The notes under the pieces were generated by a model that was not told the DNA's origin, made no database searches, and saw only the letters and a program-made list of their open reading frames with translations. Positions 48,604 through 64,000 of a stretch of DNA of 64,000 nt are shown in pieces. Numbering within the stretch: the first letter of the stretch is position 1; each line of letters begins with the position of its first letter. Position numbers and translations under genes: made by a program. Origin of the DNA: Candidatus Foliamicus sp. (GTDB lineage Bacteria > Pseudomonadota > Gammaproteobacteria > Steroidobacterales > Foliamicaceae); contig OZ250178.1 of NCBI GenBank assembly GCA_965238055.1, forward strand, positions 2,924,791 through 2,988,790, read 5' to 3'.

Positions 48604-49129
48604 ATTCTGGAACGCCCGGAACGCCCGCGAGCAGTTGTTGCTGGTCTGCCTGGGCATCGTTGTCCTGGGAGCCATCTGGTTTTTGGTCGTGGTGGTTCCG
48701 CTACAGGCTCGCGTGGACAGCTACAGGCAGGAAGTAGTGGCGGAACGCGCTCTGCTGGAGAGCGTCAATGGTTTGAGCGGCCGAATGCAGAACTTGCCGG
48801 CGCCACGGGCGCGTTCGGACACTTCGATGCTGCTGGTCGCCAACCGGTCATTGCGCGACGCAGGTCTTGACGCGTACCTGGAGGAAGGCAGTGCCGATGG
48901 AGATCGCCGCGTACGCCTGCGGCTAGGCAATGCGCCGTTCCCCAGGGTAAGCGCCTGGCTGGCGGGCCTTGCCGTTCAGGAAGGAATAAACACCGTGACC
49001 GCCGACATACAAGCAGGCGACACAACGGGTTTTGTTCAGCTGAGCCTGGTGCTGGAACGCAGGGACTTTGCTGGGAGTGAAGGCATCCCGCCTGCACAGA
49101 GGGCGGGACGCTCTCGTTCCCGGGGTTAG
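48587..49129 (+). CDS. gspM: T2SS protein GspM
   Basis: W...NAREQ plus TM helix; the 3' end reads through a REP element. Confidence 0.78.
   Translation: MNAIAEFWNARNAREQLLLVCLGIVVLGAIWFLVVVVPLQARVDSYRQEVVAERALLESVNGLSGRMQNLPAPRARSDTSMLLVANRSLRDAGLDAYLEEGSADGDRRVRLRLGNAPFPRVSAWLAGLAVQEGINTVTADIQAGDTTGFVQLSLVLERRDFAGSEGIPPAQRAGRSRSRG
49071..49125. repeat. REP-like inverted pair
   Basis: CTGGGAGTGAAGGCATCCCGCCT...GAGGGCGGGACGCTCTCGTTCCCGGGG. Confidence 0.7.
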
Positions 49130-49163
49130 GGGTTGATTTGGAACAGTATCACTGAGATGACTC

Positions 49164-49490
49164 ATGGCTGAATATCAAGTAACGCGCCCCGTGCGGCGCA
49201 CGCCGGTGCATCCCGGCGAGATCATGCGTGATGACGTATTACCAGCAATCGGATTGTCTGTAAGTGAAACGGCCAGGCGGATTGGCGTTTCGCGTCAGCA
49301 GCTCCACCGTGTCTTGGCCTGCACCCACCCGATCACGACAGAAATGGCCTTGAGGATAGGGAAATATGCCGGCAATGGGCCGGAGCTTTGGTTGAGGTTG
49401 CAGCAGAATTACGATCTGTGGCATGCGGAGAAGCGATTGAAGCGGGAACTGGACAGGATCGAGGCGAACGCCAGCGGCGCTAACCCCTGA
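49164..49490 (+). CDS. higA: HigA-family antitoxin/HTH regulator with no adjacent toxin
   Basis: HPGEIM, ITTEMALRI, WLRLQQNYDLW. Confidence 0.85.
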   Translation: MAEYQVTRPVRRTPVHPGEIMRDDVLPAIGLSVSETARRIGVSRQQLHRVLACTHPITTEMALRIGKYAGNGPELWLRLQQNYDLWHAEKRLKRELDRIEANASGANP

Positions 49491-49503
49491 CCCGCACGGT
49501 TCA

Positions 49504-51081
49504 ATGACTGAATCTCGCACCCAAGATAAATCCCTCGAATCCTGGATCTGGGATGCCGCGTGCTCCATCCGCGGCGCCAAGGACGCGCCGAAGTACAAGG
49601 ACTACATCCTCCCCCTCATCTTCACCAAGCGCCTCTGTGACGTATTCGATGACGAGTTGAACCGGATCGCCGCCGAGGTTGGTTCGCGCGAGAAGGCGTT
49701 CGGTCTCGCCAAGGCCGACCACAAGCTCGTCCGCTTCTATCTGCCCCTCGTCCCAGAAGACACGGAGCAGCCGGTCTGGTCGGTTATTCGCAAGCTCTCC
49801 GACAAGATTGGAGAATGCGTTACCACCCATCTACGGTCCATCGCCCGCGAGAACTCACTACTGCAGGGCATCATTGATCGGGTTGACTTCAACGCTACAA
49901 CCCACGGCCAGCGCGACCTCGACGATGACCGCCTCTCAAACCTTATAGAAGCCATCAGCACCAAGCGCCTTGGGCTTGACGATGTTGAGGCCGACATAAT
50001 CGGCAAGAGTTACGAATACCTCATCCGCAAATTCGCTGAAGGTAGCGGCCAGAGCGCTGGCGAGTTCTACACCCCCGGAGAAGTAGGCGAGATCATGGCC
50101 CGTGTCCTGGCGCCCGATCCAGGCATGGAAATCTACGATCCCACCTGCGGCTCCGGCGGCCTTCTCATCAAGTGTGAACTCGCCATGGAGGCCAAAACGC
50201 AGGCCGCCAAGCAGGCGAAATACGCGCCTCTCAAACTGTTCGGCCAGGAATACATCCCCGAGACCTGGGCTATGGCCAACATGAACATGATCATCCATGA
50301 CATGGAGGGACAGATCGAGATTGGCGATACTTTCAAGAATCCCAAGTTCCGTGCCGAGAAAAACGGCAAGCTCCGCACTTTCGATTGCGTGGTCGCCAAT
50401 CCCATGTGGAATCAGAAGGAGTTCACCGAAACCGACTACGACAATGACGAACTCGATCGTTTCCTTCCAGGTTTTCCCGGCAAGTCCTCCGCCGACTGGG
50501 GCTGGGTCCAGCACATTCACGCCAGCCTCAAGCCCAGATCGAGTAGCCAACACGCGGGCCGCGCCGCCGTCGTCCTCGACACCGGCGCCGCCTCCCGCGG
50601 CTCGGGCAATGCGGGAACCAACAAGGAGAAAACCGTCCGCCAGTGGTTTGTTGACCACGACCTCATCGAGAGCGTCCTCTACCTGCCCGAGAACCTCTTC
50701 TACAACACCACCGCCCCAGGCATCGTGCTCTTTCTCAACAAGGGCAAGCCCAAGTCCCGCCAGAGGAAGGTGCTCCTCGTCAACGCCAGCCAGATTTTCG
50801 AGAAAGGCGATCCCAAGAACTTCATCCCACCCGCGGGTATCGACCGCATTACCCAGATCCTGATCGAATGGAAGGAAGAAGAAAAACTCAGCCGAATCGT
50901 GGATCACGCTGAATTGAAGAAGAACGACTACAACATTTCCCCCAGCCGCTACATCCACACCGGCGAAGCCGAGACCTATCGGCCGCTGCCGGAGATCGTG
51001 GCGGAACTGGATGCGGTTGAAGCAGATGCGAGGGAGGCGGACAAAGCGCTCCGCACAATCCTCAAGCAGCTTGAATCATGA
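49504..51081 (+). CDS. hsdM: Type I RM methyltransferase subunit
   Basis: GEFYTP, YDPTCGSGG, VANPMWN (variant motif IV). Confidence 0.95.
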   Translation: MTESRTQDKSLESWIWDAACSIRGAKDAPKYKDYILPLIFTKRLCDVFDDELNRIAAEVGSREKAFGLAKADHKLVRFYLPLVPEDTEQPVWSVIRKLSDKIGECVTTHLRSIARENSLLQGIIDRVDFNATTHGQRDLDDDRLSNLIEAISTKRLGLDDVEADIIGKSYEYLIRKFAEGSGQSAGEFYTPGEVGEIMARVLAPDPGMEIYDPTCGSGGLLIKCELAMEAKTQAAKQAKYAPLKLFGQEYIPETWAMANMNMIIHDMEGQIEIGDTFKNPKFRAEKNGKLRTFDCVVANPMWNQKEFTETDYDNDELDRFLPGFPGKSSADWGWVQHIHASLKPRSSSQHAGRAAVVLDTGAASRGSGNAGTNKEKTVRQWFVDHDLIESVLYLPENLFYNTTAPGIVLFLNKGKPKSRQRKVLLVNASQIFEKGDPKNFIPPAGIDRITQILIEWKEEEKLSRIVDHAELKKNDYNISPSRYIHTGEAETYRPLPEIVAELDAVEADAREADKALRTILKQLES

Positions 51082-51600
51082 ACCGGGACAACCTCAACAT
51101 CATCCAGAGTAATGCCGGCCTCGTCGCCGACATGCGGAATATGATCGGACAAACTCGTAGTGGCGTCACGCGCGCGGTTAGTGCCGGCATGACGTTCCTT
51201 TACTGGCGGATCGGTAAACGTATCCAAATGGAAGTCCTTCAGTACGAACGCGCTGAATACGGAAGGGGAATTCTTGCCACACTGTCGCAAGAATTGAGCG
51301 CTGAATTCGGTCGTGGCTACAGCTATTCCGCTCTTACCCGGATGGTCAAGTTTGCCGAAGCGTTTCCCGATGAAGAGATTGTCGCTGCACTGCGGCGACA
51401 ATTAGGCTGGACCCACTTCAAGGCGTTGATTCCGATCCGGGATCCTTTGAGACGAGATTTCTACGCCGAGATGTGCCGTGTTGAACGGTGGAGTATCCGC
51501 ACACTCGCCAGCAAACTGGACTCCATGCTCCACGAGCGCACCGCGATATCGAAAAAGCCATCCTGCGGGAACTTGAGAACTTCCTCCTCGAACTCGGCAC
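51078..51600 (+). pseudogene. YhcG/DUF1016 gene with an intact N-domain and a deleted nuclease domain
   Basis: LYWRIG, RAEYG, LGWTHF, ERTAISKKP, then out-of-frame ILRELENFLLELG. Confidence 0.85.
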
Positions 51601-51779
51601 TCCTCAGCAGGGAGGGAAGAGCTTCGCCAACCGCTATATTTCCCGAGCTCAGGAGAACTAATCATCCGACAATCATCCGATTTCCTGGCTGGAATCGTCC
51701 GGCCAATCGGTGGAATGGTCAGAAGTTATCAGGTCTGGTCTCGTCAACCATCGGAAACGCTTCATCAGCGGAACGACAA

Positions 51780-52349
51780 TGACGGGACCGCGGATGTCCA
51801 ACCAACCCGAGGGTATCGCCCGCTATAAGAATCCAGAGCGGTCGAACGATTTGGCCTGCAATTGGTTGCATAACCGGAACACTTTGGAGGTTCTGGGTAT
51901 TTGGGAGAGCTCCGCAACCTCGGTTTTAATTCCGTCGAATTTGACGGAATTAAAACACAGGCCGGTCGGAAAAGTTTCACCCTCACTCCGAAGCAATGGA
52001 TCGAGAAAACGGGCACCATCCATACCCATCTCATCCCGACCGAGATTGCCGCGAAACAAGCCACCATCACCTATACCACAACGAAGCCGACGTGCTCAAT
52101 GTCGCCCTCTTCGGCCAGACCGCCCGTGAATGGCGCGATGCGAACCCGGATAAGGACGGCAACATGCGCGACCACGCCACCCTGGAGCAACTCCTCGTCC
52201 TCGCCAATCTGGAAAACATGAATGCCGAGTTCATCCACATGGAACTGACGCAGAGGGAACGCTTGAAGCGCCTCAACGCCATAGCCATCCGCCAGATGCA
52301 GACCCTCACCGCCCGCAGCCTGAAACAGCCAGAAGGAGGTGTGGAATGA
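51780..52349 (+). pseudogene. KilA-N-domain protein remnant (two frameshifts, internal deletion)
   Basis: IARYKN..NWL.NRNTLE.LGIWE / FNSVEFDGIK..FTLTPKQWIE / EADVLNVALFG.TAREWR in three frames. Confidence 0.75.
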
Positions 52350-52471
52350 ACTGGGGCGGAACAAAGGAGAACGCACTTTCCAGTCTGCTGCATGGCGAGT
52401 TGAGAATCCTCCCTGCGGCCAGGGAGATGGACGAGCCCTCGTGGGAGATTCTGGAGAAGATCGGGATATGA
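52346..52471 (+). pseudogene. 41-codon remnant ending in a diverged copy of the hsdM 3' end
   Basis: AREMDEPSWEILEKIGI* aligns without gaps to HsdM AREADKALRTILKQLES*. Confidence 0.5.
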
Positions 52472-53721
52472 ACGATTCCAATCTATTGATCAAACCATTG
52501 CCGCCTGGTTGGGAAAACTACCAATTTGGCGACGTGTGCAGGTGCGTAAAGGACTCCTACAAGCCAGTCGAAGGCGGCGCCACTCCTTATGTCGGCTTGG
52601 AGCATCTTGCGCAGGGGTTCCCCGCTTTCGTCGGTCGTGGAACGGAAAGCGACATCAAGTCCTCGAAAACCACTTTCAAAATAGGAGACGTTCTATTCGG
52701 CAAGCTCCGGCCATACTTGAGAAAAGGAGCCCAAGCGGATTTCGATGGAATCAGTTCAACCGACATCCTTGTCTTTCGTACTGATAACAGGTGCGAATCG
52801 GATTTTCTGAAGTTTCTTGTCCACAGCGATGAATTCATCAACCATGCAAAATCGACAACTTCCGGCGTTCAACACCCACGGACTTCGTGGCCGTCGCTTA
52901 GGGAGTTTCACCTGTCACTCCCCCCACTCCCCGAACAGAAGAAGATCGCTTACATCCTTTCGATGGTGCAGCGAGCGACCGAAGCGCAGGAGCGGATCAT
53001 TCAGACCACCACCGAGCTGAAAAAGGCCCTCATACACAAGCTCTTTACCGAAGGCCTCCGCAACGAACCCCAAAAACAAACCGAAATCGGCCCTGTGCCC
53101 GAAAGCTGGGAGATCGTGGAGATCGGCGAGCTTGGAAAATGCGTCACCGGTTCGACACCGAAAACGAAAGTAGCGGCATTCTACGATCCGCCCAGCGAAG
53201 ACTTTATTGCTCCCGCCGATCTCGGGGTGCGTCGCTACGTTTATGATTCGAAGAAGATGATCTCTCCAGAGGGAATTGAATCGATCAGGGCGATTCCAAA
53301 GAACGCTGTGATGTGCGTCTGTATCGGGTCAAGCATTGGTAAAGTTGGAATGACCTTCCGAAAAGTTTCCGCAACAAATCAGCAGATCAATTCCATTGTT
53401 TGCAAAGAGGGGCGGGATCCTGATTTTGTGTTCTACCTCCTGAGCTACTTCCGAGAATATTGGAAAGGCTTCGCGACTTTCGGGCCTGTTCCGATTCTGA
53501 GCAAAGGCCGCTTCTCGTCTATTCTCGTTCCACTACCAAAATCGATCGAGGACCAAAAGAACATAGCTAAGCCGCTGCTTGCTCTCGATGCCAAAATTGA
53601 AATCACCGAGAGGAAGGTCGCATCCCTCAAGAACCTCTTCCTCACCATCCTTCACGAACTAATGACCGCGAAGACTCGCGTTCACGAATTGGACCTAGTC
53701 GGAACACAATTTGCAACATGA
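52468..53721 (+). CDS. hsdS: Type I RM specificity subunit
   Basis: Two TRDs, LPPLPEQKKIA, TEIGPVPESW, LHELMT. Confidence 0.93.
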   Translation: MNDSNLLIKPLPPGWENYQFGDVCRCVKDSYKPVEGGATPYVGLEHLAQGFPAFVGRGTESDIKSSKTTFKIGDVLFGKLRPYLRKGAQADFDGISSTDILVFRTDNRCESDFLKFLVHSDEFINHAKSTTSGVQHPRTSWPSLREFHLSLPPLPEQKKIAYILSMVQRATEAQERIIQTTTELKKALIHKLFTEGLRNEPQKQTEIGPVPESWEIVEIGELGKCVTGSTPKTKVAAFYDPPSEDFIAPADLGVRRYVYDSKKMISPEGIESIRAIPKNAVMCVCIGSSIGKVGMTFRKVSATNQQINSIVCKEGRDPDFVFYLLSYFREYWKGFATFGPVPILSKGRFSSILVPLPKSIEDQKNIAKPLLALDAKIEITERKVASLKNLFLTILHELMTAKTRVHELDLVGTQFAT

Positions 53722-56700
53722 AAAAACTCACGATCGATCTCGAACATTGCTACGGCATTAAGAAACTCCAGACCGAGTTTAATTTTGAGTCGCATGGCGA
53801 CGTTTTTACTGTTTATGCGCCGAATGGCGTAATGAAGACATCTCTGGCAAATACCTTTCGAGATGTGAGTAACGGAGCCGCCTCGACGGATCGAATCTGG
53901 AAAATCAACAAAACGAAGCGAGTTATCCAGGATGAAAACGGTGATGAACTTGCACCGGAAAGTATCTTCGTCATTGAGCCCTACAATGAGGGCTATCGAT
54001 CAGATCGGATATCAACGCTTCTCGTCAATGAAGATCTGCGTAAACGCTACGAAGACATCCACAAAGAGATCGACGAGAAGGCGGAGGCTCTAACGGTCGA
54101 GTGGAAGAAACTAACAAAGCTAAAGAAGGGAATCCGGGAAGAATTCTCCAAGTCGATAACACATGACCCGAATGACTTTTATCGGGCTTTAGCGAGAGTC
54201 CGAGAAGAGGTTGAGAATGAGGAGGGAACGGCCCTTGGAAGCATTGTATACACCGACATTTTCAACGCAAAGGTTGAACCTGTCCTTAGTGATCCCAATT
54301 TCATCAGAAAAATCGAGGAATACATTCAGAAGTATGACGAATTGCTGAGTAACTCCACCTTCTTTAAGAAAGGGGTATTTACTCACAATAACGCTGCTGA
54401 AATTGCGAAAAACCTTAACACAAACGGATTCTTCAAAGCGGGACACTCTGTTTACCTCCGGATCAAAGGTGAAAAAATCGAGGTAACGTCTCTGAATGAG
54501 TTGGAGAAGGCGATTCAATCGGAGAAAGAGCTCATTCTCACCGATGAGTCACTAAGGTCCGCCTTCGAGGATATCGATAAGCAGCTTCAAAGAAATGTTG
54601 ATCTAAGGAAATTTAGGCTCTGCTTGGCGGAGAACCAAATTGTCCTTGTCGAGCTTGCTAATCCGGGGCGGCTCCGACAGAAACTGTGGGTTGAATACCT
54701 CATTCGCTCTAGGGCCGCCTATCAGGATCTCCTTTGCTCCTTCAATGAAGGAAAGGACAAGATTGCTGAGGTGGTAAGGGAAGCTAGGACGGAAAGGACA
54801 AAATGGGCAGAGGTGATCCGTATCTTCAACGAGCGCTTCTCTGTTCCATTTGTAGTGCGGATGGACAATCAGGAGGACGTGATTCTGAAGAGGGACGCTC
54901 CAAGCATATGCTTTGACTTTCTAGAAGACTCCGATGATCCTGGGTCAGCGACGGCCCCAATCGAAGAAGGAGATCTGATGAGAGTCTTGAGCAATGGAGA
55001 AAGCCGCGCACTCTACATGCTCAATATCATATTTGAAGTCGAAGCGCGTAAGACTGCTGGGCAAAACACTCTCTTTGTCATTGATGACATCGCTGACTCG
55101 TTCGATTACAAGAACAAATACGCGATAATCGAGTATCTGATGGAGGTAGGTTCGGAGGATGGATTTCAGCAGTTGATCCTAAGCCATAACTTCGACTTCT
55201 ACCGAACGGTCTCCAGCCGTCTCAATCTGAGGCGTCAGAACCGCATTCTTGCAAACAAAGAGAATAGCACCGTATTTCTCCAAGAAGAGATTTATCAAAG
55301 ATCAGCTCCCTTTGCCCACTGGCGCAAGAACCTTACCAAGAATCCGATGCTGATTGCGTCGATTCCCTTTCTCAGGAATTTAGCTGAATTCTCTGGAGAT
55401 GATGCTTCCTATGCCAAGCTAACATCTCTGCTACATATTAAGTCCGACACTTCGCAATTTTCAATTGCCAACCTTGAGACATTGATCAAGATCATTCTGC
55501 ATGACCAGACAGCATTAGTCCTTCCTCACCAAGAAATGCTGAGGTGGTCCCACTTTTTTGGACAGGTCGTTAAGGTGTATTTTGATGCCTCACGGAGGGC
55601 ATTGAGATGACGACGAGACGACGCCGGTTCACGGCGGAATTCAAGAAAAAGGTGGCGCTAGAGGCGCTGCGCGGAGATCGCACGATTCAGACGATAGGGG
55701 CCCGTCACGGGGTGCATCCGAACCAGGTGAGCACTTGGAAGCGGCAGGCCATGGACGGTCTGGGGGATGTGTTCGCGGGTCGGGGTTCGAACCGCGGCTC
55801 GGGTCACGAGAAGACCATCCGGGAGTTGCACGCGAAGATCGGCGAGTTGACGGTGGAGCGGGATTTTTTTCTACGCGGGTTGGCGCGTTGAGTCGTGGGG
55901 AGCGGATCGGGATGCTGGGACGCGGCGGCGAATTGAATTTGAAGCGCCAATGCGCGTTGCTGGGCGTCAGCCGCTCGTCGCGGTATTACAAGCCACTCGG
56001 GGAATCCGCGGAGAACGTGCGGCTGATGCGGCGCATCGACGAGGCGTATCTGAAGTATCCGTTCTACGGCAGTCGGCAAATGGCTCGCCATCTGGGGCGT
56101 CTGGGGCTGATGGCGGGCCGTCATCGGGTCCGGCGGCTGATGGGATTGATGGGGCTGGAGGCGATCTATCGCAAGCCGCGAACGAGTGCGGCGCATCCCG
56201 ATCACCGGGTGTATCCATACCTGCTGCGGGAGTTGACGATCGAGCGGCCGGACCAGGTTTGGTGCGCGGACATCACCTATGTTCCGGTATCTCAAGGATT
56301 TTTCTATTTGGTGGCGGTGATGGATTGGGTGAGCCGGTACGTGCTGGCCTGGCGGCTGTCGAACACATTGGACGGCGCCTTTTGCATCGCGGCGCTGGCG
56401 GCGGCGTTGCGCCTGGGGACGCCGGAGATCTTCAATACGGACCAGGGCGCGCAGTTCACCAGCGCGGCCTTCACCGAGCGGGTGCAAGCCGCGGGCGCTC
56501 GCTGTTCCATGGACGGACAGGGCCGGTTCCTGGACAACATCTTCATCGAACGGCTGTGGCGCTCGCTGAAATACGAAGCGGTGTACCTGCACGAGCTCGC
56601 GGACGGTTTCCAGGCCGAGCGCGTCATCTCGAACTGGGTTGGGTTTTACAACGACTCGCGTCCGCACTCGGCGCTGGACGGGCGCACACCCGGCGAAGTC

Positions 56701-57383
56701 TATCGTGGCATCGCGGTGGCGGCATGAGCGCATCGGCGGGATTCAACCCAGCGGACCCGCCGGGGACCGGCCGCCTTGGAGTCCACACGCCGCGTATTCC
56801 ACCGCCTCCCCACGGGCGCTTTATACGTGGGGAGACCGCGCCCGTGGCAAGCCGGTGGAATACGCTACAGGCCCCGCTTCAACGTCCGGGAGGGACCCGG
56901 CCAGCGGTATTGACACCGGCTCGGTTCGCGAGCACGATTTCGTTTGACGAGGGCACAATCAACCAATCGAAATACACCTTAATAAAGCCCTCGGACTGTC
57001 CAACAAACCAGGACCACCTCATGCTTGTGAAAGATTTGATTTATAAGGTTGCGACGGCGGTCGCCGCAGATCCTACTGAGACTGCCGTCCTTGAAGACAA
57101 GGTTGTGCTCTCAATTGCAATCCGACTAAAGGCTGAAGACTTCATGATTTCAAAGATCAATGATGAGCCTTTCTGGCATGGAATAACGAGCAATCAGACC
57201 ATTGCCTTAATCAAGCGATTCAAAGCGGACTTTCCGGCGGAGAAAGAGAGCATTCAGATTTTTGACCAAGTGAACTTGATGACGCCCGAGAATATTCACC
57301 TCAATTCTTTCATGTATGAGCCAATTCTCGATCTGTCTGTCCAGCATCTGAAGCGGCTGTTTACCAAGGTTGATGTACTTTGA
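53718..57383 (+). pseudogene. ABC/SMC-type ATPase (726 aa when restored) split by IS3
   Basis: YAPNGVMKTS (Walker A), LSNGE (signature), VIDDIADSFD (Walker B), LSHNFDF (H-loop); IS removal restores ...QEMLVKDLIYK... in frame. Confidence 0.85.
55540..57021 (+). mobile_element. IS3-family element, copy 2 (1482 bp)
   Basis: TG...CA ends; TGC TSD at 55537-55539 and 57022-57024; OrfA 55607-55891, OrfB ends 56727. Confidence 0.96.
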
Positions 57384-57769
57384 TCATACCCACTTCTTCC
57401 GAGCACAAGAACGTCCAGGCCCGGATTCTCGCCTACGCCGAGACCATCAGCTGGACGATTGTGTCTCGCGAAGAAGCCGAAGGTGCCTTGCTCGGCCAGT
57501 TTCGCCACCTCCACATCGACGTTAACAAATTTCCCGCGTGGGCGATTGAGCGCAAGAACGCCGCCAAAGACGAGGCGATTGCCCTCGGTGTAGGTGGCAA
57601 CCCAGTTCCGCGACAGGGTGTCGTAGATTTCGATGACGGCGTCGTCGACGAGAAATGGCGACAGGCTGTTGCCAAATTGGCTGGCACCTTTTTGGAACAG
57701 GATTTCCCAGAGAGTGTTTTGCAGGTTCCGAGGTATGTGTGGCAACCACACAATTTCATCACAGCTTGA
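57380..57769 (+). pseudogene. Mosaic remnant: collapsed hsdR 5' end fused to a YhcG-like middle segment
   Basis: Three blocks match the HsdR at 58945 (SEHK.VQARIL, GALLGQFRHLH, KNA.KDEAIALGV), followed by KWRQAVAKL...VLQVP. Confidence 0.75.
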
Positions 57770-57786
57770 ATTTCTGTGAAAGAACC

Positions 57787-58932
57787 ATGCCTGGCAAACT
57801 GATCCGATCTCCACACTACGCCGTCTGGTTAGGCGAAGTGAAATCGCGGATTCAATCGGCGCGGATATCGGCCGCGCGCTCGGTGAATCGCGAGCTGATC
57901 CTGCTCTACTGGGACATTGGGCAAGGGATCGTGGAAAAGCAGAAGGAACTGGGTTGGGGAAGGTCGGTGGTGGAGCAATTGTCGCTGGATTTGAGGGCAG
58001 AGTTTCCAGGGATGCGGGGGTTTTCCGCCAATAACATCTGGCTCATGCGGCAGTTTTACTCGGAATACAGTTCTCGGGTATTTCTTGAACAGTTTGTTCA
58101 AGAAATACCGTCGAAGCGATTGGGTTCCCCGAAGGCGACCGTTGGAGAATCGGCAATTCTTGAACAGCTTGTTCAAGAATTTCTATCGCCAGTGCCCTGG
58201 GGGCATCTTGTTGAGATCGTCAAGAAAGTGAAGGTGCCACGAGAACGGATTTACTACCTCCGGGCAACCGCCCAGTCTGGCTGGACGAGAGCCGTTCTGC
58301 TGAACCAGATCAAAGCTAATGCCTACGGGCGCAGCCTGTCCAAAGGAAAAGCGCACAATTTTCCTCTCGCCCTGCCGGAACATCTCGCCGAGCAGGCTGA
58401 GGAAGCGCTGAAGAGTTCCTACAACCTGGAATTTCTCGGCATCGGTCGGGAGATTAAGGAACGGGAGCTGGAGGGCAAGCTGATCGAGAAGCTGAAGGAA
58501 TTCATCCTGGAACTTGGCTACGGTTTCTGCTTCATCGCCAGGCAACATCGGGTTGTGGCCGGAACGAAAGAGTACTTCATCGATCTGCTCTTCTATCATC
58601 GTTTCCTCAAATGCCTCGTCGCCTTTGAACTGAAGATCGGCGAATTTCGGCCGGAGTTCGCCGGCAAGATGGATTTCTACCTGAATGTGCTGAATGAAAA
58701 GGAACAGGCGATCGATGACAACCCGTCCATTGGGATTATTCTCTGCGCGGAAAAGGATGATGTGGAAGTCGAATTCGCGCTGAAGTCGAAGACTAACCCG
58801 ATCGGCGTGGCGGAATATTACCTGGAGCCGAGCTTGCCGAAAGAACTAAGAGGCAAGCTCCCAACGGCGGAAGAACTTGGTGCGGCCATTGGATTGCCCA
58901 CGAAGCGTCCAGGGAGCGCTAAGAAAAGGTAG
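57787..58932 (+). CDS. YhcG/DUF1016 PD-(D/E)xK nuclease-domain protein
   Basis: LYWDIG, VPWGH, YNLEFL, IDLLFYHRFLKCLVAFELK, GKMDFY. Confidence 0.92.
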   Translation: MPGKLIRSPHYAVWLGEVKSRIQSARISAARSVNRELILLYWDIGQGIVEKQKELGWGRSVVEQLSLDLRAEFPGMRGFSANNIWLMRQFYSEYSSRVFLEQFVQEIPSKRLGSPKATVGESAILEQLVQEFLSPVPWGHLVEIVKKVKVPRERIYYLRATAQSGWTRAVLLNQIKANAYGRSLSKGKAHNFPLALPEHLAEQAEEALKSSYNLEFLGIGREIKERELEGKLIEKLKEFILELGYGFCFIARQHRVVAGTKEYFIDLLFYHRFLKCLVAFELKIGEFRPEFAGKMDFYLNVLNEKEQAIDDNPSIGIILCAEKDDVEVEFALKSKTNPIGVAEYYLEPSLPKELRGKLPTAEELGAAIGLPTKRPGSAKKR

Positions 58933-58944
58933 CATCAAGAAGAG

Positions 58945-61881
58945 ATGCCCACCCCATCCGAACACAAAACCGTCCAAGCCCGCATCCTCACATACGCCGA
59001 AGCCATCGGCTGGACGGTCGTGTCCCGAGAGGAAGCGGAGCAACGGCGCGGGTTTGATCCAGATACGCCACCCAAGGATCGCGCTAAGGGCCGCTCGCTT
59101 TTCTTCGACGACCTGCTGGACGCCAAGGTGCGGGAGTTCAATCCGCGCTACCACGAGGCCGAGGGCGCCCTACTTGGCCAATTCCGCCACCTCCACACCA
59201 ACATTCACGGCAACCGGGATTTCGTTGAGCATCTGCGCAACCGGGGCAAGTTCTTCGACCAGGAGGAGAACCGCGAGCGCGAACTGATCCTGATTGATTA
59301 CGAACGCCCGGAGCGCAATGTTTTCCAGGTCACCGAGGAGTGGGCGTTTCACAACGGCCACTACGGCACGCGGGAGGATGTGGTTTTCCTCATCAACGGC
59401 ATCCCGGTGCTGGTAATCGAGTGCAAGAACGCTACCAAGGACGAGGCGATAGCGCTCGGCGTGGATCAGATCCGCCGTTACCACCGCGAAACGCCCGAAC
59501 TGTTCGTGCCGGAGCAGATTTTCACGGCCACCGACGCCATCGGCTTTTCCTATGGCGTGACATGGAACACGGTGCGGCGGAATATTTTCAACTGGAAGGA
59601 TGCGGAGGTGGGCAAGCTGGAGGCCAAGGTGAAGAGCTTTTGCGCCATCCCGCAGGTGCTCGCCTTTCTGAAGGACTACATCATCTTCGCCGAGAAGGAC
59701 GAAGAGCTGAACAAGTACATCCTGCGCCAGCACCAGACGGGCGCAGTCGAGGCAACTGTTGAGCGCGCCCTTGCCACCGACCGCACTCGCGGCCTCATCT
59801 GGCACACCCAGGGTAGTGGCAAGACTTTCACCATGATCAAAGCGGCGGAGCGGTTGTTCCGCGCGCCGGCGGCTGACAAGCCGACCATCCTTCTGATGAT
59901 CGACCGCAACGAGTTGGAAGATCAGATGCTCAAGAACCTTGCCGCGCTCGGCCTGGGCACCCTGGAGCACGCGAGCAGTATCGCCCGGCTCAACCGGCTG
60001 CTGAAAGATGACTACCGGGGCATCGTCGTAACGATGATTCACAAGTTCCGCGACATGCCGGAGAATCTCAACACGCGCTCGAACATCTACGTCCTCATCG
60101 ACGAAGCACATCGCACCACTGGCGGCGACCTGGGCAACTTCCTCATGGCCGGCCTTCCCAACGCCACCTACGTCGGTTTCACCGGCACACCGGTGGACAA
60201 AACGGTCCATGGCAAGGGCACCTTCAAGACCTTCGGCTGCGAGGACGACCAGGGCTATCTGCACAAATATTCCATTGCCGACAGCATTGAGGACGGCACC
60301 ACCCTGCCCCTCTACTACCAGCTTGCCCCCAACGAAATGCTCGTGCCGCATGAGACCCTGGACGCGGAGTTTCTCGCCCTCGCCGAAGCTGAAGGCGTAG
60401 CCGACATTGAGGAACTGAACAAGATTCTTGAGCGGGCGGTGAACCTGAAGAACTTCCTTAAGAGCGAGGAGCGAATCAAGCAAGTGGCGAAGTTCGTCGC
60501 GAAGCATTACTGCGACAATGTCGAGCCGCTTGGTTACAAGGCTTTTCTCGTCGGCGTTGACCGAGAGGCGTGCGCTCACTACAAGAAGGCGCTGGATGTC
60601 GAATTTGGACAACTCGGCCTTCCGCCCGAGTACTCCGAAGTCGTTTACACGGGGAACAATAACGATTCCGTGCTACTGAAGGAATTCCATCTCGACCTGA
60701 AGCGGGAACGGCAGTTTCGCAAGAGCTTCGGCAAGCTTGACCAGCTCCCGAAGATACTCATCGTCACCGAGAAGCTGCTGACTGGCTTTGATGCGCCGCT
60801 TCTCTACGCTATGTATCTCGACAAGCCGATGCGCGACCACACTCTGCTTCAAGCCATCGCCCGGGTGAACCGCCCGTACGAGAACGAGGCGCAGGAGATG
60901 GTGAAGCCGCACGGGTTCGTCCTTGATTTCGTGGGCATCTTCGACAAGCTCGAGAAGGCCCTCGCCTTCGACAGCGACGAGATCAACGCCATTGTCAAAG
61001 ACCTCAAACTCCTGAAGGTGCTCTTCAAGCACAAGATGGAGCAGAAAGCGCCCGAATACCTGTCCCTCATCGGACCCCGATTCAACGACAAGGATGTTGA
61101 TACTCTCATAGAGCACTTCCGCGATCCTGAGCGGCGCAAGGAGTTCTTCAAGGAATACAAAGAGATCGAGATGCTCTACGAGATCATCTCGCCGGATGCC
61201 TTCCTGCGGCCGTTCATTGAGACCTATCAAACGCTCACCGCAATCTTCCAGGTTGTGCGTAAGGCGTACGCCAAATACGTTCCTGTTGACCGCGAGTTTC
61301 AAAGGAAAACGGAAAGGCTGGTTCGCGAGCATGTGGATTCGTATGTCGCGAAGCTGGAAGAAGAACTGGTTGAAATCAACGCGGAAACCATCGATCTGAT
61401 TAAGGAGTCAAACGCCGGCGACGCAACCAAGGTCATTAACCTGGTAAAGAGCATTGAGAAGTTGGCGAAGGAAGGCAGCGACGATCCGAACCTGATCGCG
61501 ATGGCGGATCGCGCCCGTGCCGTGCAGGAGAGTTTTGAAAGCCGCCAATCCAGCACTGCTCAAGCACTGGAAGATTTACTCAGTGAGGTGGGTAAGAACG
61601 AAGCGCGCAAGAAGGAGCAGGCAAAGAGGTCTTTTGATGGGCTGACGTATTTCGTCTATCGAAGTCTGCTGGATGCCGGGATTGATAAGGCCGAGGAGGT
61701 CAGTCGCAGTATTCGTCAAGCCTTCTCTGAGTTTCCTAACTGGAAGCAAAGCGAGAGTGAGCTTCGCGAGTTGCGCCAGAAAGTGACCTTTGCCATATAC
61801 GCCGAAACGGAGGACCTTGAGCAAGTGGCTTCTGTGGTCGATGAATTATTCACGTTGTTGGAGAAAGCGGACAGGATTTGA
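58945..61881 (+). CDS. hsdR: Type I RM restriction subunit
   Basis: INGIPVLVIECK, HTQGSGKT, IDEAHR, GFTGTP, LLTGFDAP, QAIARVNR. Confidence 0.96.
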   Translation: MPTPSEHKTVQARILTYAEAIGWTVVSREEAEQRRGFDPDTPPKDRAKGRSLFFDDLLDAKVREFNPRYHEAEGALLGQFRHLHTNIHGNRDFVEHLRNRGKFFDQEENRERELILIDYERPERNVFQVTEEWAFHNGHYGTREDVVFLINGIPVLVIECKNATKDEAIALGVDQIRRYHRETPELFVPEQIFTATDAIGFSYGVTWNTVRRNIFNWKDAEVGKLEAKVKSFCAIPQVLAFLKDYIIFAEKDEELNKYILRQHQTGAVEATVERALATDRTRGLIWHTQGSGKTFTMIKAAERLFRAPAADKPTILLMIDRNELEDQMLKNLAALGLGTLEHASSIARLNRLLKDDYRGIVVTMIHKFRDMPENLNTRSNIYVLIDEAHRTTGGDLGNFLMAGLPNATYVGFTGTPVDKTVHGKGTFKTFGCEDDQGYLHKYSIADSIEDGTTLPLYYQLAPNEMLVPHETLDAEFLALAEAEGVADIEELNKILERAVNLKNFLKSEERIKQVAKFVAKHYCDNVEPLGYKAFLVGVDREACAHYKKALDVEFGQLGLPPEYSEVVYTGNNNDSVLLKEFHLDLKRERQFRKSFGKLDQLPKILIVTEKLLTGFDAPLLYAMYLDKPMRDHTLLQAIARVNRPYENEAQEMVKPHGFVLDFVGIFDKLEKALAFDSDEINAIVKDLKLLKVLFKHKMEQKAPEYLSLIGPRFNDKDVDTLIEHFRDPERRKEFFKEYKEIEMLYEIISPDAFLRPFIETYQTLTAIFQVVRKAYAKYVPVDREFQRKTERLVREHVDSYVAKLEEELVEINAETIDLIKESNAGDATKVINLVKSIEKLAKEGSDDPNLIAMADRARAVQESFESRQSSTAQALEDLLSEVGKNEARKKEQAKRSFDGLTYFVYRSLLDAGIDKAEEVSRSIRQAFSEFPNWKQSESELRELRQKVTFAIYAETEDLEQVASVVDELFTLLEKADRI

Positions 61882-61884
61882 TCT

Positions 61885-62214
61885 ATGACGGCCGTTGAAC
61901 ACAAGCGCGAGTTCAAGCAACGCGTCCGGCATTGGGCGGAAAAGTTGGATGTGGAGATTGTTTGGCTGGGTGTTCGTCCGATGCGTAACAAGTGGGCGTC
62001 TTGCTCAACGAATGGCCATCTGAACTTTAGTGATGGGCTGCTTGGTCTTGATGGTGAACTTTGGGATTATGTGATCGTCCACGAACTTCTGCATTTTTCG
62101 GTTCCGAATCATGGCAAGCTTTGGAAGAGCCTGATGCGGGTGCACTTGGGTGACTATGAAAGGCTGGAGGGGCGTTTGAGGGCGGTAAGCACGAATCGCT
62201 CACCGTACTTGTGA
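61885..62214 (+). CDS. Short M48/YgjP(DUF45)-like metallopeptidase domain protein
   Basis: KWASCS, YVIVHELLH..VPNHG. Confidence 0.85.
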   Translation: MTAVEHKREFKQRVRHWAEKLDVEIVWLGVRPMRNKWASCSTNGHLNFSDGLLGLDGELWDYVIVHELLHFSVPNHGKLWKSLMRVHLGDYERLEGRLRAVSTNRSPYL

Positions 62215-62244
62215 TGAAGGCCTAATAAACTGATTCGAGAGGAT

Positions 62245-63366
62245 TCAGCGGCTGGCCCTGGTCCCGAACCCGTGCGACGCCTGTGTGCGTTCGATTTCCG
62301 ACGCAAGAAGTTGCTCGTCCGGTAGCACCATCCGGTACTCGGCTGCCAATACCTTGTTGGCCAAGCCGCCAAGCGCATACCGCGCAACGGCTTCATCCTT
62401 CTGGGCACAGAGAATCAGCCCCACCGGTGGGTTTTCGTCCTCGTGAACCCAATGCTCCCGCGCATAGTTGAGATAAACGTGCATTTGTCCCGCGTCGGAA
62501 TGAGTGAATCTGCCAATTTTCAAATCGACGACGACAAGACATCGCAAACGCCGGTGAAAGAACAGTAGGTCTACTCGATACCATTCGTCCCCAATACGCA
62601 GGCGCTTTTGCCTGCCCATGAAACAAAAGTCTTCGCCCAGTTCCAGGAGAAATGTTTCGAGACGGCGGATCAACGCTTTTTCGAGATCGCTTTCGGAGTA
62701 CTCATCCTTGAGGTCCAGGAATTCAAGGACGAATGGGTCTTTGATTTCTTCCTCTGGAAGTATGCGGCTTTCAGAAGGCATCCTCCGCCCCTTCGTCAAC
62801 ATGGCGGCCTTGTTCTTTGAGGCAGAGGTCCGCTCGTAGAACTGAGAATGTATCTGGCGGTTAAGCTGACGAACCGACCATCCCCCGCGCAGTGCCTCGG
62901 CTTCGTAGAATTCGCGGGCGCCCATGTTTTTGACTGAAAGAAGGCGCACATAGGCGGCCCAAGGGAGTGGAAAGCGTGAGGCGACGCTGGTTAGCGAAGA
63001 TTCTGCAGACGCCGTCTGCAGAATTCCTCTGCCCTCAGATTCCGCAGGCGGTGTCTGCGGAATCGGCCACGCGAGGTAGAACGCCTTCATTTGCCAGACA
63101 TTGCGAAGCGAAAATCCTCGGCCGTAACGGGTAGAAAGGTCAGCGGAAAGCTGCTCTACAGTCTCCTCCCCATAGTCGGCACGCTTCTTCCCTTCCTGCT
63201 CGAACTCCACGATATGCCGCCCGATCAGCCAATACGCGGCGGTCATCACAGCATTTACCGAACGAGCAGCCGAGTGTCTGGCAGCATCGATAATTCTGGC
63301 TACATCTACGAAGATGGGATGCCGCTGGCCATCAAGTTCAGCGGGCTTGTCCAACAGCTTTTTCAT
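62245..63366 (-). CDS. YhcG/DUF1016 PD-(D/E)xK nuclease-domain protein
   Basis: YWLIG, RADYG, IKDPFVLEFL, VDLLFFHRRLRCLVVVDLK, AGQMHVYLNY. Confidence 0.92.
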   Translation of the reverse strand: MKKLLDKPAELDGQRHPIFVDVARIIDAARHSAARSVNAVMTAAYWLIGRHIVEFEQEGKKRADYGEETVEQLSADLSTRYGRGFSLRNVWQMKAFYLAWPIPQTPPAESEGRGILQTASAESSLTSVASRFPLPWAAYVRLLSVKNMGAREFYEAEALRGGWSVRQLNRQIHSQFYERTSASKNKAAMLTKGRRMPSESRILPEEEIKDPFVLEFLDLKDEYSESDLEKALIRRLETFLLELGEDFCFMGRQKRLRIGDEWYRVDLLFFHRRLRCLVVVDLKIGRFTHSDAGQMHVYLNYAREHWVHEDENPPVGLILCAQKDEAVARYALGGLANKVLAAEYRMVLPDEQLLASEIERTQASHGFGTRASR

Positions 63367-63424
63367 GGCTTGCTCTTCGCGTATAGGTAGTTCAGCAGTC
63401 AACGGCCACTCCATAGTGTTTAGT

Positions 63425-64000
63425 CCGAACTTCCGATTGAATTCCCGTTCGATTTGGGTTCAAGTCATTGATTGGCAGGGGTTTTGTAGCTTTACCTGGG
63501 CCTGATGTGTAGCCATGTATATAGGCGAATGATTCATTCCCCTCATTGATTCTCTCTTTATATCAGGCTATACTCCGTGGCCATGTATATCGAGGCCGTC
63601 CCGAACCGCAATTCGCCCCCCGCCGTGCTCCTGCGGGAGTCCTACCGACAAGACGGCAAAGTCAAGAAACGCACCCTCGCCAACCTGTCGAAATGGCCCC
63701 CCGAGGTGGTCGAGGGCTTGCGCGTGTTGCTCAAGGGCGGAACCGCGGTGGGCGCCCTGGCCGAAGCCTTCGAGGTCACGCGTTCTTTGCCTCACGGCCA
63801 CGCCGCTGCGGTGCTGGGCGCTGTCAAGAGGCTGCGCTTCGACCGCCTGATCGACGCGCAGCCCTCGCCGCAACGGGATCGGGTCTTGGCGCTGATCGCC
63901 GCGCGTATCCTGCATCCCGGCTCGAAGCTGGCCGCCGCCCGGGGGCTGGCCGAAGCAACGGCGCGCGACACCTTGGGCGAGGCGCTCGGACTTCAACCGG
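63425..64000 (+). mobile_element. IS1634-family element, partial
   Basis: Left end estimated at CCGAACTTCCG; the right end is outside the window. Confidence 0.65.
63583..64000 (+). CDS. IS1634-family transposase, 5' part
   Basis: MYIEAVPNRNSPPAVLLRESYRQDGKVKKRTLANLSKWP. Confidence 0.88.
   Translation, partial: MYIEAVPNRNSPPAVLLRESYRQDGKVKKRTLANLSKWPPEVVEGLRVLLKGGTAVGALAEAFEVTRSLPHGHAAAVLGAVKRLRFDRLIDAQPSPQRDRVLALIAARILHPGSKLAAARGLAEATARDTLGEALGLQP

Follow-up and report, generated by a model that had tools for sequence, protein, structure and literature searches.

The genes of the YhcG/DUF1016 family (Pfam PF17761 and PF06250; COG4804; PDC-S02 in PADLOC, a candidate defence gene) were found to carry a short palindrome inside the reading frame, which is a family-wide feature and is also present in yhcG of Escherichia coli K-12. 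The starting point was a stretch of 64,000 nucleotides (nt) from Candidatus Foliamicus sp. (GenBank assembly GCA_965238055.1, contig OZ250178.1, forward strand, positions 2,924,791 to 2,988,790), hereafter called the window, in which three DUF1016 genes, termed g1, g2 and g3, and one apparent relic of a DUF1016 linker were located. The element is a palindrome of 27 nt in double-stranded DNA, made up of two 12-bp arms and a 3-nt centre, and encodes nine residues predicted to form an α-helix of the DUF1016 N-terminal domain. Its base pairing constrains the choice of codons. We propose, with a confidence that stays slightly short of even, that the element is a self-homogenising coding palindrome, kept by template switching from arm to arm and filtered by selection on the protein.

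Base pairing in the coding sequence

A sequence-only reading of the window had described eight hairpins within the DUF1016 sequences, and all eight were found at the coordinates given there. Pairs were counted at distances 2-12 from the centre base, 11 in all. Every hairpin was centred on base 1 of codon 5 of a nine-codon motif in the frame of its own open reading frame (ORF), as had been claimed. Six sites were near-perfect (10-11 of 11 pairs), while the two sites of the relic ORF were weak (7/11 and 8/11), in line with their description as decayed. The sites were as follows.

51269-51295, + strand: palindrome ILATLSQEL of g1, 10/11 pairs, DNA fold -6.8 kcal/mol
51378-51402, + strand: palindrome IVAALRRQL of g1, directly before GWTH, 10/11 pairs, DNA fold -10.7 kcal/mol, z -5.1
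57605-57629, + strand: decayed motif VPRQGVVDF of the relic, 7/11 pairs
57653-57677, + strand: decayed motif KWRQAVAKL of the relic, 8/11 pairs
58077-58109 (core 58081-58105), + strand: palindrome FLEQFVQEI of g2, 11/11 pairs, perfect 15-bp stem, DNA fold -14.5 kcal/mol, z -8.4
58155-58181, + strand: palindrome ILEQLVQEF of g2, 11/11 pairs, perfect 12-bp arms, DNA fold -10.1 kcal/mol
63000-63024, - strand: palindrome ILQTASAES of g3, 11/11 pairs, perfect 11-bp arms, DNA fold -10.9 kcal/mol
63038-63064, - strand: palindrome IPQTPPAES of g3, 10/11 pairs, DNA fold -11.8 kcal/mol

As single-stranded DNA, the six good sites folded with -6.8 to -14.5 kcal/mol, which was equalled by none of 200 shuffles, and the decayed sites at 57605-57629 and 57653-57677 folded with -3.9 and -5.9 kcal/mol. 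A hairpin was indeed located ahead of the W motif in each gene, directly before GWTH in g1, 4 residues before PWGH in g2 and 11 before PWAA in g3. In the ancestral arrangement the palindrome helix ends just ahead of the conserved (P/S)W.H motif. ILATLSQEL of g1 belongs to a second site, a helix that precedes the W-proximal one by 36 residues, and this second site was likewise palindromic in a Serratia plasmid gene (L121, IVVSLARQL). In the scanned genome (3,390,704 bases, 61% G+C), hairpins with a 3-nt loop and a stem of 11 or more, one mismatch being allowed, numbered 114, and 6 of these lay in the three DUF1016 genes; perfect hairpins numbered 6, with 2 in DUF1016 genes. The eight arm motifs occurred 2-14 times in 3.39 Mb, compared with 1.6-6.5 expected, their own copies included, and no enrichment was found elsewhere.

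A large share of the long hairpins of the genome belonged to one high-copy family of REP-like palindromes, whose arm core is CGTCCCGCCCTC together with its complement (for example G000 109358-109396, 957264-957322 and 2479138-2479190) and whose sequence is unrelated to the DUF1016 palindromes. A further hairpin in hsdR (61167-61191, 11-bp stem with one mismatch) was unlike the DUF1016 elements and is probably a product of chance.

Sample A was obtained by searching contigs with an alignment of the C-terminal nuclease domain only, so that relatives were not picked by their palindrome. A total of 599 pattern matches were obtained, of which 529 encode relatives, and the best 80 were taken as loci and combined with g1-g3 to give 83 coding sequences (CDSs) of the g2 clade from many phyla. 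Segments with at least 10/11 pairs were centred on codon base 1 in 128 cases, on base 2 in 2 and on base 3 in none, and 1 was even-centred. At least one segment centred on codon base 1 was present in 75/83 genes at 10/11 pairs or more and in 81/83 genes at 9/11. The palindrome density was 1.26/kb inside the DUF1016 CDSs and 0.09/kb in 167 kb of flanks, a 14-fold difference. Synonymous-codon shuffling, the check that the sequence-only reading had proposed, left a mean of 2.35 and a maximum of 5 segments of at least 10/11 pairs over 40 shuffles, compared with 130 observed.

Sample B was selected on the Pfam score only. Of 301 genomes of the window's phylum searched with PF17761, 63 matched, and the best 30 loci were taken together with E. 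coli K-12 yhcG. A phase-0 palindrome with at least 9/11 pairs was present in 29/31 CDSs, with xW directly after it in 28, across subfamilies whose peptides and arms are scarcely shared (IVQQAVGQL, FVQQVVAQI, IRETLSLEL, ILVSLIREL, IWKSVISKL and IVHALRAQL). Sample C comprised 14 of the 30 matches listed from 527 plasmid records, chosen for taxonomic breadth, and 2 viral loci, which were the only DUF1016 loci in the viral contig scan. The hosts ranged from 29% to 66% GC and included Fusobacteriota (29% G+C), Bacteroidota, Actinomycetota and Pseudomonadota. The palindrome was found in 14/16 CDSs of sample C, directly before xW in 11/16, and was not found in the genes of Hymenobacter (L118) and of one Arthrobacter (L129).

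The unbiased test was made on samples B and C, in which 44/47 genes have the anchor motif, and took the nine codons before xW. These codons formed 9.45/11 pairs on average and at least 9 pairs in 39/44 genes. The same peptides with resampled synonymous codons gave 5.02 pairs, with P(>=9) = 0.016, and other in-frame segments gave 2.71 pairs, of which 0.034% reached 9. For 90 distinct W-proximal elements, 93.9% of the cells were paired compared with 66.3% after shuffling (0/500 shuffles as high), and the covariation score was 0.649 compared with 0.160. Changes on both sides were observed in 11/12 pairs, and pairing was 32-46% when the partner was slid by 1-3 columns. These 90 elements had been preselected at 9/11 pairs or more, and the unbiased comparison of 9.45 with 5.02 pairs is the stronger one.

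The choice between synonymous codons followed the partner arm. The codon of Arg7 was AGA with TCA at codon 3 and CGA with GCA, and that of Ala7 was GCC with Trp2 (TGG) and GCA with Leu2 (CTG). The third base of the codon preceding the motif was A, pairing with T, in 77/90 sequences. The stem had sharp limits: the pairing of 74-98% seen over distances 2-13 from the centre dropped to 38-47% at distances 1, 14 and 15. The earlier proposal that the constraint acts on the nucleic acid was thus borne out by the synonymous shuffles, by the covariation of codons with the partner arm and by the changes on both sides. Across homologues the arms paired far above shuffled controls, and they differed between genes and stayed paired, as had been described for the window. 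The likeness of copies within a gene was also supported across relatives, the arm core being shared in 31/136 within-gene pairs (23%) compared with 6.1% between genes.

In the observed register, the three bases of codon 1 face base 1 of codon 9 and then bases 3 and 2 of codon 8; codon 2 is matched in the same way by base 1 of codon 8 with bases 3 and 2 of codon 7, and further codons pair likewise inward. With Watson-Crick pairing, residues 1-9, 2-8 and 3-7 are therefore coupled, and this pairing accounts for the covariation of amino acids Leu2/Glu8, Val2/Gln8 and Trp2/Ala7-Lys8. Phe1 or Ile1 also co-varied with residue 9. The loop sequence varied and was not conserved. When graded, 68 elements were perfect, 60 had one mismatch and 48 had two mismatches.

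It might be thought that only the peptide is conserved, an amphipathic helix which by chance can be encoded as a palindrome. The peptide is a confident helix in the structure model, and resampled codons still gave 5.02 pairs compared with the background of 2.71. However, synonymous shuffling abolished the palindromes, synonymous codons tracked the partner arm and the third base of the preceding codon was drawn into the pairing, so that the shuffles, the covariation and the nine-codon resampling refuted this explanation and left it with practically no probability. Selection could also act on a hairpin in the mRNA, which would serve as a translational pause for folding, as a control of mRNA stability, or as a scaffold or guide RNA that the protein binds. 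Stem covariation in a transcribed region is a classic mark of a functional RNA helix, the stems should be stable as RNA judging from their DNA folds, and TnpB-type guide RNAs overlapping their own gene provide an analogy. Nevertheless, we consider the mRNA explanation very improbable. A selected RNA stem should tolerate G·U, but among 187 unique elements with 2057 pairs, G·T mismatches numbered 39 and A·C mismatches 51, or 29 and 46 when the end pair was left out. Since G·T mismatches were no commoner than A·C, the constraint looks like one on DNA and not on mRNA, which also counts against the guide RNA named among the candidates of the sequence-only reading. The Rfam search of 49000-64000 at E<=1 returned only a chance miRNA match at 56791-56866 (28.6 bits compared with a gathering score of 95), so neither G·U tolerance nor a match to a curated RNA family was found. 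Moreover, the loop is not conserved, and the palindrome is equally good on either strand.

Spread, copy number and decay

Among cluster representatives at 50% identity, 22,100 matches with E<=1e-3 were obtained, and 109 of the best 150 had the anchor motif. The 9-mer before xW was able to encode at least 10/11 pairs in 47/109 representatives (43%), compared with 2.5% of control 9-mers, and all 11 pairs in 18/109, compared with 0.34% of controls. In 50/109 representatives the 9-mer allowed at most 8 pairs, which indicated that the feature is not universal and that loss of the palindrome is tolerated. At positions 2/8 the representatives had Leu-Glu 19 times and Val-Gln 19 times, and the 25 commonest combinations listed included neither Leu-Gln nor Val-Glu.

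The number of elements per gene in sample A (at least 9/11 pairs) was 1 in 18 genes, 2 in 42, 3 in 12, 4 in 8 and 5 in 1, and the commonest spacings between elements were 48, 51 and 60 nt. Beside the two decayed copies in the relic of the window, many copies of the NRRQAVAKL type were found. Among broken or split DUF1016 copies, 11/12 kept a palindrome with at least 9/11 pairs. One split copy (L139, G214:C95:90554-92290) had three identical perfect palindromes with a 57-nt period and is a tandem array of helix-plus-spacer modules.

In E. coli, yhcG was present in 4,465/5,426 genomes, with coverage of at least 80% in 3,349, and ten alleles were read (K-12, L114, compared with L144-L148 and L149-L153). 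The K-12 gene has three palindrome copies; its palindrome 1 has a mismatch which is not in other alleles, and R replaces the W of the motif. A divergent allele, 95% identical outside the linker, had different yet perfect arms at palindromes 1 and 2, and at palindrome 1 three adjacent pairs differed with both versions perfect. Mismatches in palindrome 2 were common to alleles 2-3% apart. One in-frame deletion of 78 nt and one frameshifting deletion of 80 nt each removed palindromes 2 and 3. In one allele class the gene stopped right behind the final base of palindrome 3, followed by a gene annotated as transposase, for which no Pfam match was found. The gene yhcG may be decaying in parts of the species. 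When Logan contigs of four sequencing runs were compared with g2, no variant letters, indels or joints were found in its two palindromes, although contigs cannot show rare variants, so that this result bears neither on flipping of the loop nor on conversion between arms.

Gene context and the predicted protein

The region of the window was assigned by Pfam and PADLOC to a type I restriction-modification (R-M) operon, with g3 beyond its end.

49504-61881, + strand: operon with hsdM, g1, hsdS, the PDC-S46 ORFs, the relic, g2 and hsdR (Pfam, PADLOC)
49504-51081, + strand: hsdM (Pfam)
51078-51782, + strand: g1, DUF1016 N-terminal domain only, without nuclease domain (PF17761 E=1.2e-41, residues 19-154)
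52339-53721, + strand: hsdS (Pfam)
53718-55610 and 55950-57383, + strand: two ORFs matching the PADLOC candidate PDC-S46
57596-57720, + strand: apparent relic of a DUF1016 linker, inside ORF 57380-57769 (translation, pair counts, register)
57781-58932, + strand: g2, full-length YhcG with DUF1016_N and YhcG_C PD-(D/E)XK nuclease (Pfam)
58945-61881, + strand: hsdR (Pfam)
62245-63414, - strand: g3, full-length YhcG of the E. coli yhcG subfamily (Pfam N and C domains)

Three DUF1016 matches were found by Pfam in the whole genome, and g3, in the orientation opposite to the operon, is the third. The DUF1016_N scores were 142.5 bits for g1, 135.9 for g2 and 140.4 for g3 (Pfam gathering cut-off 32.8), and the YhcG_C scores were 199.6 bits for g2 and 194.7 for g3, while g1 lacks this domain and has no family match in its tail past about residue 160. 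The ORF of g2 is open from 57655, and its homologues (381-398 aa) begin near 57781. The g3 motifs IPQTPPAES and ILQTASAES resemble the IPQTPSAEF type of E. coli. The sequence-only reading had counted four YhcG sequences, which has to be amended to three genes plus one relic ORF. ORF 57380-57769 gave no Pfam match at E<=0.001 as a fourth gene, and two minus-strand ORFs overlapping it gave none at E<=1. It encodes three linker-type motifs (VPRQGVVDF, KWRQAVAKL and FLEQDFPES) in the correct register, and judging from these it is therefore best described as a relic of a DUF1016 linker, not a gene.

For the other ORFs of the region, no Pfam match was found for three ORFs downstream of g1. The first PDC-S46 ORF covered model positions 1-599 of 719 and the second 590-716, and the pair may be a split or frameshifted gene; an additional weak SMC_N match was detected in the first (53718-55610). 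A short ORF right after hsdR (61885-62214) matched only the C-terminal half of a YgjP-like metallopeptidase (profile positions 112-205 of 207), and may be truncated or have a mis-called start. Beyond the end of the window, upstream of g3 (L131, G000:C1:2986000-3000000), were a DDE_Tnp_1 transposase ORF and an AddAB-like pair, consisting of a UvrD-type helicase that contains a PDDEXK_1 domain and another PDDEXK_1 protein.

The structure of g2 in its 383-aa form was modelled from 96 sequences (pLDDT 91.1). This model replaced a first one from 39 close sequences, which had a pLDDT of 64 and gave meaningless Foldseek matches. In the second model the motifs are predicted to form helices at residues 99-108 (FLEQFVQEI) and 123-135 (ILEQLVQEF), with the PW motif at 139-140. 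The predicted C-terminal domain was matched by Foldseek best to NucS/EndoMS (2vld_A, E=4.2e-5; 5gke_A, E=1.6e-4; probability 1.00, about 130 columns), and columns D268, L284 and K285 were nearly invariant in the 96 sequences. According to the model, the nuclease domain of YhcG has a NucS/EndoMS-like PD-(D/E)XK fold, a likeness of fold only. NucS/EndoMS is a mismatch- and branch-specific endonuclease that reads distortions of DNA structure, and we know of no NucS genes that carry such palindromes. Compared with NucS/EndoMS, YhcG as a predicted nuclease adds an unrelated helical N-terminal domain of about 200 aa, for which no significant match in the PDB was found by structure search or by sequence profile (best E=0.065). 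The fold agrees with Kosinski et al. (2005, PMC1189080), who placed YhcG by profile near DUF91 and archaeal Holliday-junction resolvases.

Maintenance and meaning of the palindrome

If the palindrome is self-homogenising, its two arms would copy each other, presumably by intrastrand template switching. After a mutation in one arm, the nascent strand would, during replication, turn back on itself and be extended with the other arm as its template, which would either revert the change or write its complement into the other arm. The arms would thus drift in sequence and remain complementary, and protein selection would pass only the coupled changes tolerated by the helix. The position in frame would shield the palindrome from deletions of the kind that remove palindromes elsewhere, extra copies would come and go as helix-plus-spacer modules of the tolerant linker are duplicated or deleted, and copies gathering several mismatches would decay. 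The palindrome would then be a self-perpetuating DNA structure inherited from the family ancestor, with no need of a dedicated function. Near-perfect arms in orthologues with paired multi-base changes, as template switching should leave them, were found, and the spread of perfect, one-mismatch and two-mismatch elements (68/60/48) would be expected from a balance of mutation and correction. This neutral explanation accounts for the decayed copies, the persistence in broken genes and the turnover of modules, as well as for the variable loop, for the loss at that site in some half of the representatives and for the lack of matching sites in the rest of the genome. Template switching, a candidate already in the sequence-only reading, is therefore plausible as the process keeping the arms paired, but the diversification of a specificity peptide attached to it there found no support here.

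Several observations weigh against the self-homogenising palindrome and bear on a second explanation. Comparable palindromes are rare elsewhere (2 of the 6 perfect ones in 3.39 Mb being those of DUF1016 genes), so that the drive is not general or requires a coding context. One codon position has been kept across Pseudomonadota, Actinomycetota, Bacteroidota and Fusobacteriota despite full turnover of the arms, which is much for a neutral process, and the palindrome 2 mismatches shared by E. coli alleles 2-3% apart mean that correction is not fast. The E. coli yhcG that looks decaying also has less perfect palindromes, which hints that pairing is kept only under selection on the gene, and the extra copies and second-site palindrome (g1, Serratia L121) could mean that more copies are favoured. 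Arm-to-arm template switching is itself a step inferred from sequence. Alternatively, and this we regard as the main rival, tentative and of lower probability, the palindrome may be a selected cis-acting DNA hairpin or cruciform read by a structure-specific protein, most simply by the gene's own NucS/EndoMS-like nuclease, a binding site for the protein itself having been among the candidates of the sequence-only reading. The hairpin would form on single-stranded DNA, or the cruciform under negative supercoiling, for the autoregulation of a potentially toxic nuclease or for the sensing of DNA topology or single-stranded DNA in defence, and template switching would only supply the compensatory changes. 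A selected site is in keeping with the retention of one site across phyla while the arms turned over, with the conservation of structure alone (a sharp 12-bp stem and 3-nt centre), with a strand-symmetric signal, with the scarcity of such palindromes elsewhere, with the different arms of paralogues in one genome and with the status of DUF1016 as a candidate defence gene; the predicted NucS/EndoMS-like fold and the profile link to resolvases also speak for it. How deep and precise the retention is, how rare such palindromes are elsewhere and how slow correction is in E. coli are better explained by it than by the neutral explanation. However, half of the representatives or nearly so (50/109) cannot encode at least 9 pairs at the site, the palindromes persist in g1, which has the N-terminal domain only, and in broken copies, matching sites are lacking elsewhere in the genome, and a nuclease cutting its own gene would be self-destructive, unless its action stopped at binding. 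Stems of 11-12 bp also lie at the lower limit for cruciform extrusion in vivo. A narrower form of this explanation, which seems rather unlikely to us, is that the palindrome is the nuclease's own DNA ligand, a candidate operator or sensor encoded inside the domain that helps to recognise it. A change in supercoiling or in single-strandedness, such as phage attack or the entry of DNA might bring about, would then lead YhcG to bind its own hairpin or cruciform and thereby to set its expression or to permit its activity, and every paralogue would have an arm sequence private to it.

The palindrome might also be a site of recombination, either a crossover site of a recombinase or a target or breakpoint of insertion sequences and deletions, by which N- and C-terminal halves or modules are shuffled. 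The truncated E. coli allele class, which ends exactly after palindrome 3 before the annotated transposase gene, and the 78-nt and 80-nt deletions would fit such a site, as would the 4-nt overlap of DUF1016 with an upstream tyrosine-integrase gene on two plasmids and the 17-fold enrichment of DUF1016 beside targets of programmed inversion. We judge it improbable. Trees of the N and C parts rejected each other, but C-part blocks of equal size did so as strongly (ΔlnL 396-535 compared with 418-446), so that the recombination site suggested by the sequence-only reading is not supported by tree incongruence. The differing arms of paralogues offer no homology, the E. coli breakpoint is a single event, and the inversion-neighbour enrichment may be explained by residence in type I R-M loci. 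Inversion of the loop found no support, since reverse-complement loops on identical arms were not in excess (9 of 77 pairs compared with 9.9 expected). The core site of a tyrosine recombinase has inverted arms around an overlap region of 6-8 bp, for which the 3-nt unpaired centre, with pairing of 87-98% from distance 2 outward, is too short.

On the two plasmids with the overlap (L117 of P. aeruginosa and L122 of Salmonella), DUF1016 starts 4 nt inside the end of the upstream tyrosine integrase/recombinase gene, an arrangement that points to translational coupling of the two. In the inversion survey (PMC9881135, Table 2), the DUF1016 family protein was 17.4-fold enriched beside programmed-inversion genes, compared with 8.2 for type I M and 9.0 for type I S; its enrichment thus exceeds that of the R-M genes themselves.

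The DUF1016 palindromes differ from the short palindromes known in bacteria. REP/BIME elements, which are extragenic, and Rickettsia palindromic elements, which can sit in frame inside genes, are high-copy, share their sequence and are spread genome-wide, whereas the DUF1016 arms occur at chance frequency elsewhere in the genome and differ between genes. The many same-sequence copies, mostly outside genes, that mark a REP-like or mobile repeat were not found for the DUF1016 arms. Lavi et al. (2018, PMC5941160) reported that the conservation of perfect inverted repeats in E. coli exceeds expectation, and proposed that template switching preferentially corrects imperfect repeats to perfect ones. 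Those repeats are likewise short, near-perfect and conserved in orthologues, but the DUF1016 palindrome occupies one codon register of one family in several phyla, its arms turn over completely, it is present in several copies and it imposes amino-acid covariation. The name yhcG does not occur in the main text of that paper, whose supplementary repeat list could include a yhcG repeat. In RNA genes, template switching can fix stem pairing and give multibase compensatory changes in one event, so that compensatory evolution need not pass through unpaired intermediates (Mönttinen and Löytynoja 2022, PMC8794818). There an RNA stem is selected, while the DUF1016 stem lies in a protein-coding helix and has no G·U tolerance. 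In the 2019 report on Nematomorpha mitochondria (PMC6649704), perfect inverted repeats with both arms coding were described in protein-coding genes; these are up to 284 bp long, affect many genes of few mitochondrial genomes and are lineage-specific, whereas the DUF1016 element is 27 nt long, specific to a gene family and spread across bacteria. No description of palindromes in DUF1016/yhcG genes was found in the literature, supplements not being covered. The palindrome would be categorically new if it is the ligand of its own nuclease.

These results provide a clear case of DNA pairing shaping protein evolution in a very large family (22,100 cluster representatives, E<=1e-3). Base pairing between codons fixes which residues co-vary (Leu2-Glu8, Val2-Gln8, and Phe1/Ile1 with residue 9), and methods based on coevolution could mistake such covariation for structural contacts. 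The palindromic modules also account for the hypervariable, indel-prone linker of DUF1016 proteins. With three copies in yhcG of E. coli K-12, the explanations are directly testable in a standard strain. Uncharacterised yet frequent in type I R-M operons and mobile elements, YhcG/DUF1016 is a candidate defence gene, and the palindrome, if functional, would open a way into how it works and give the first mechanistic handle on the family.

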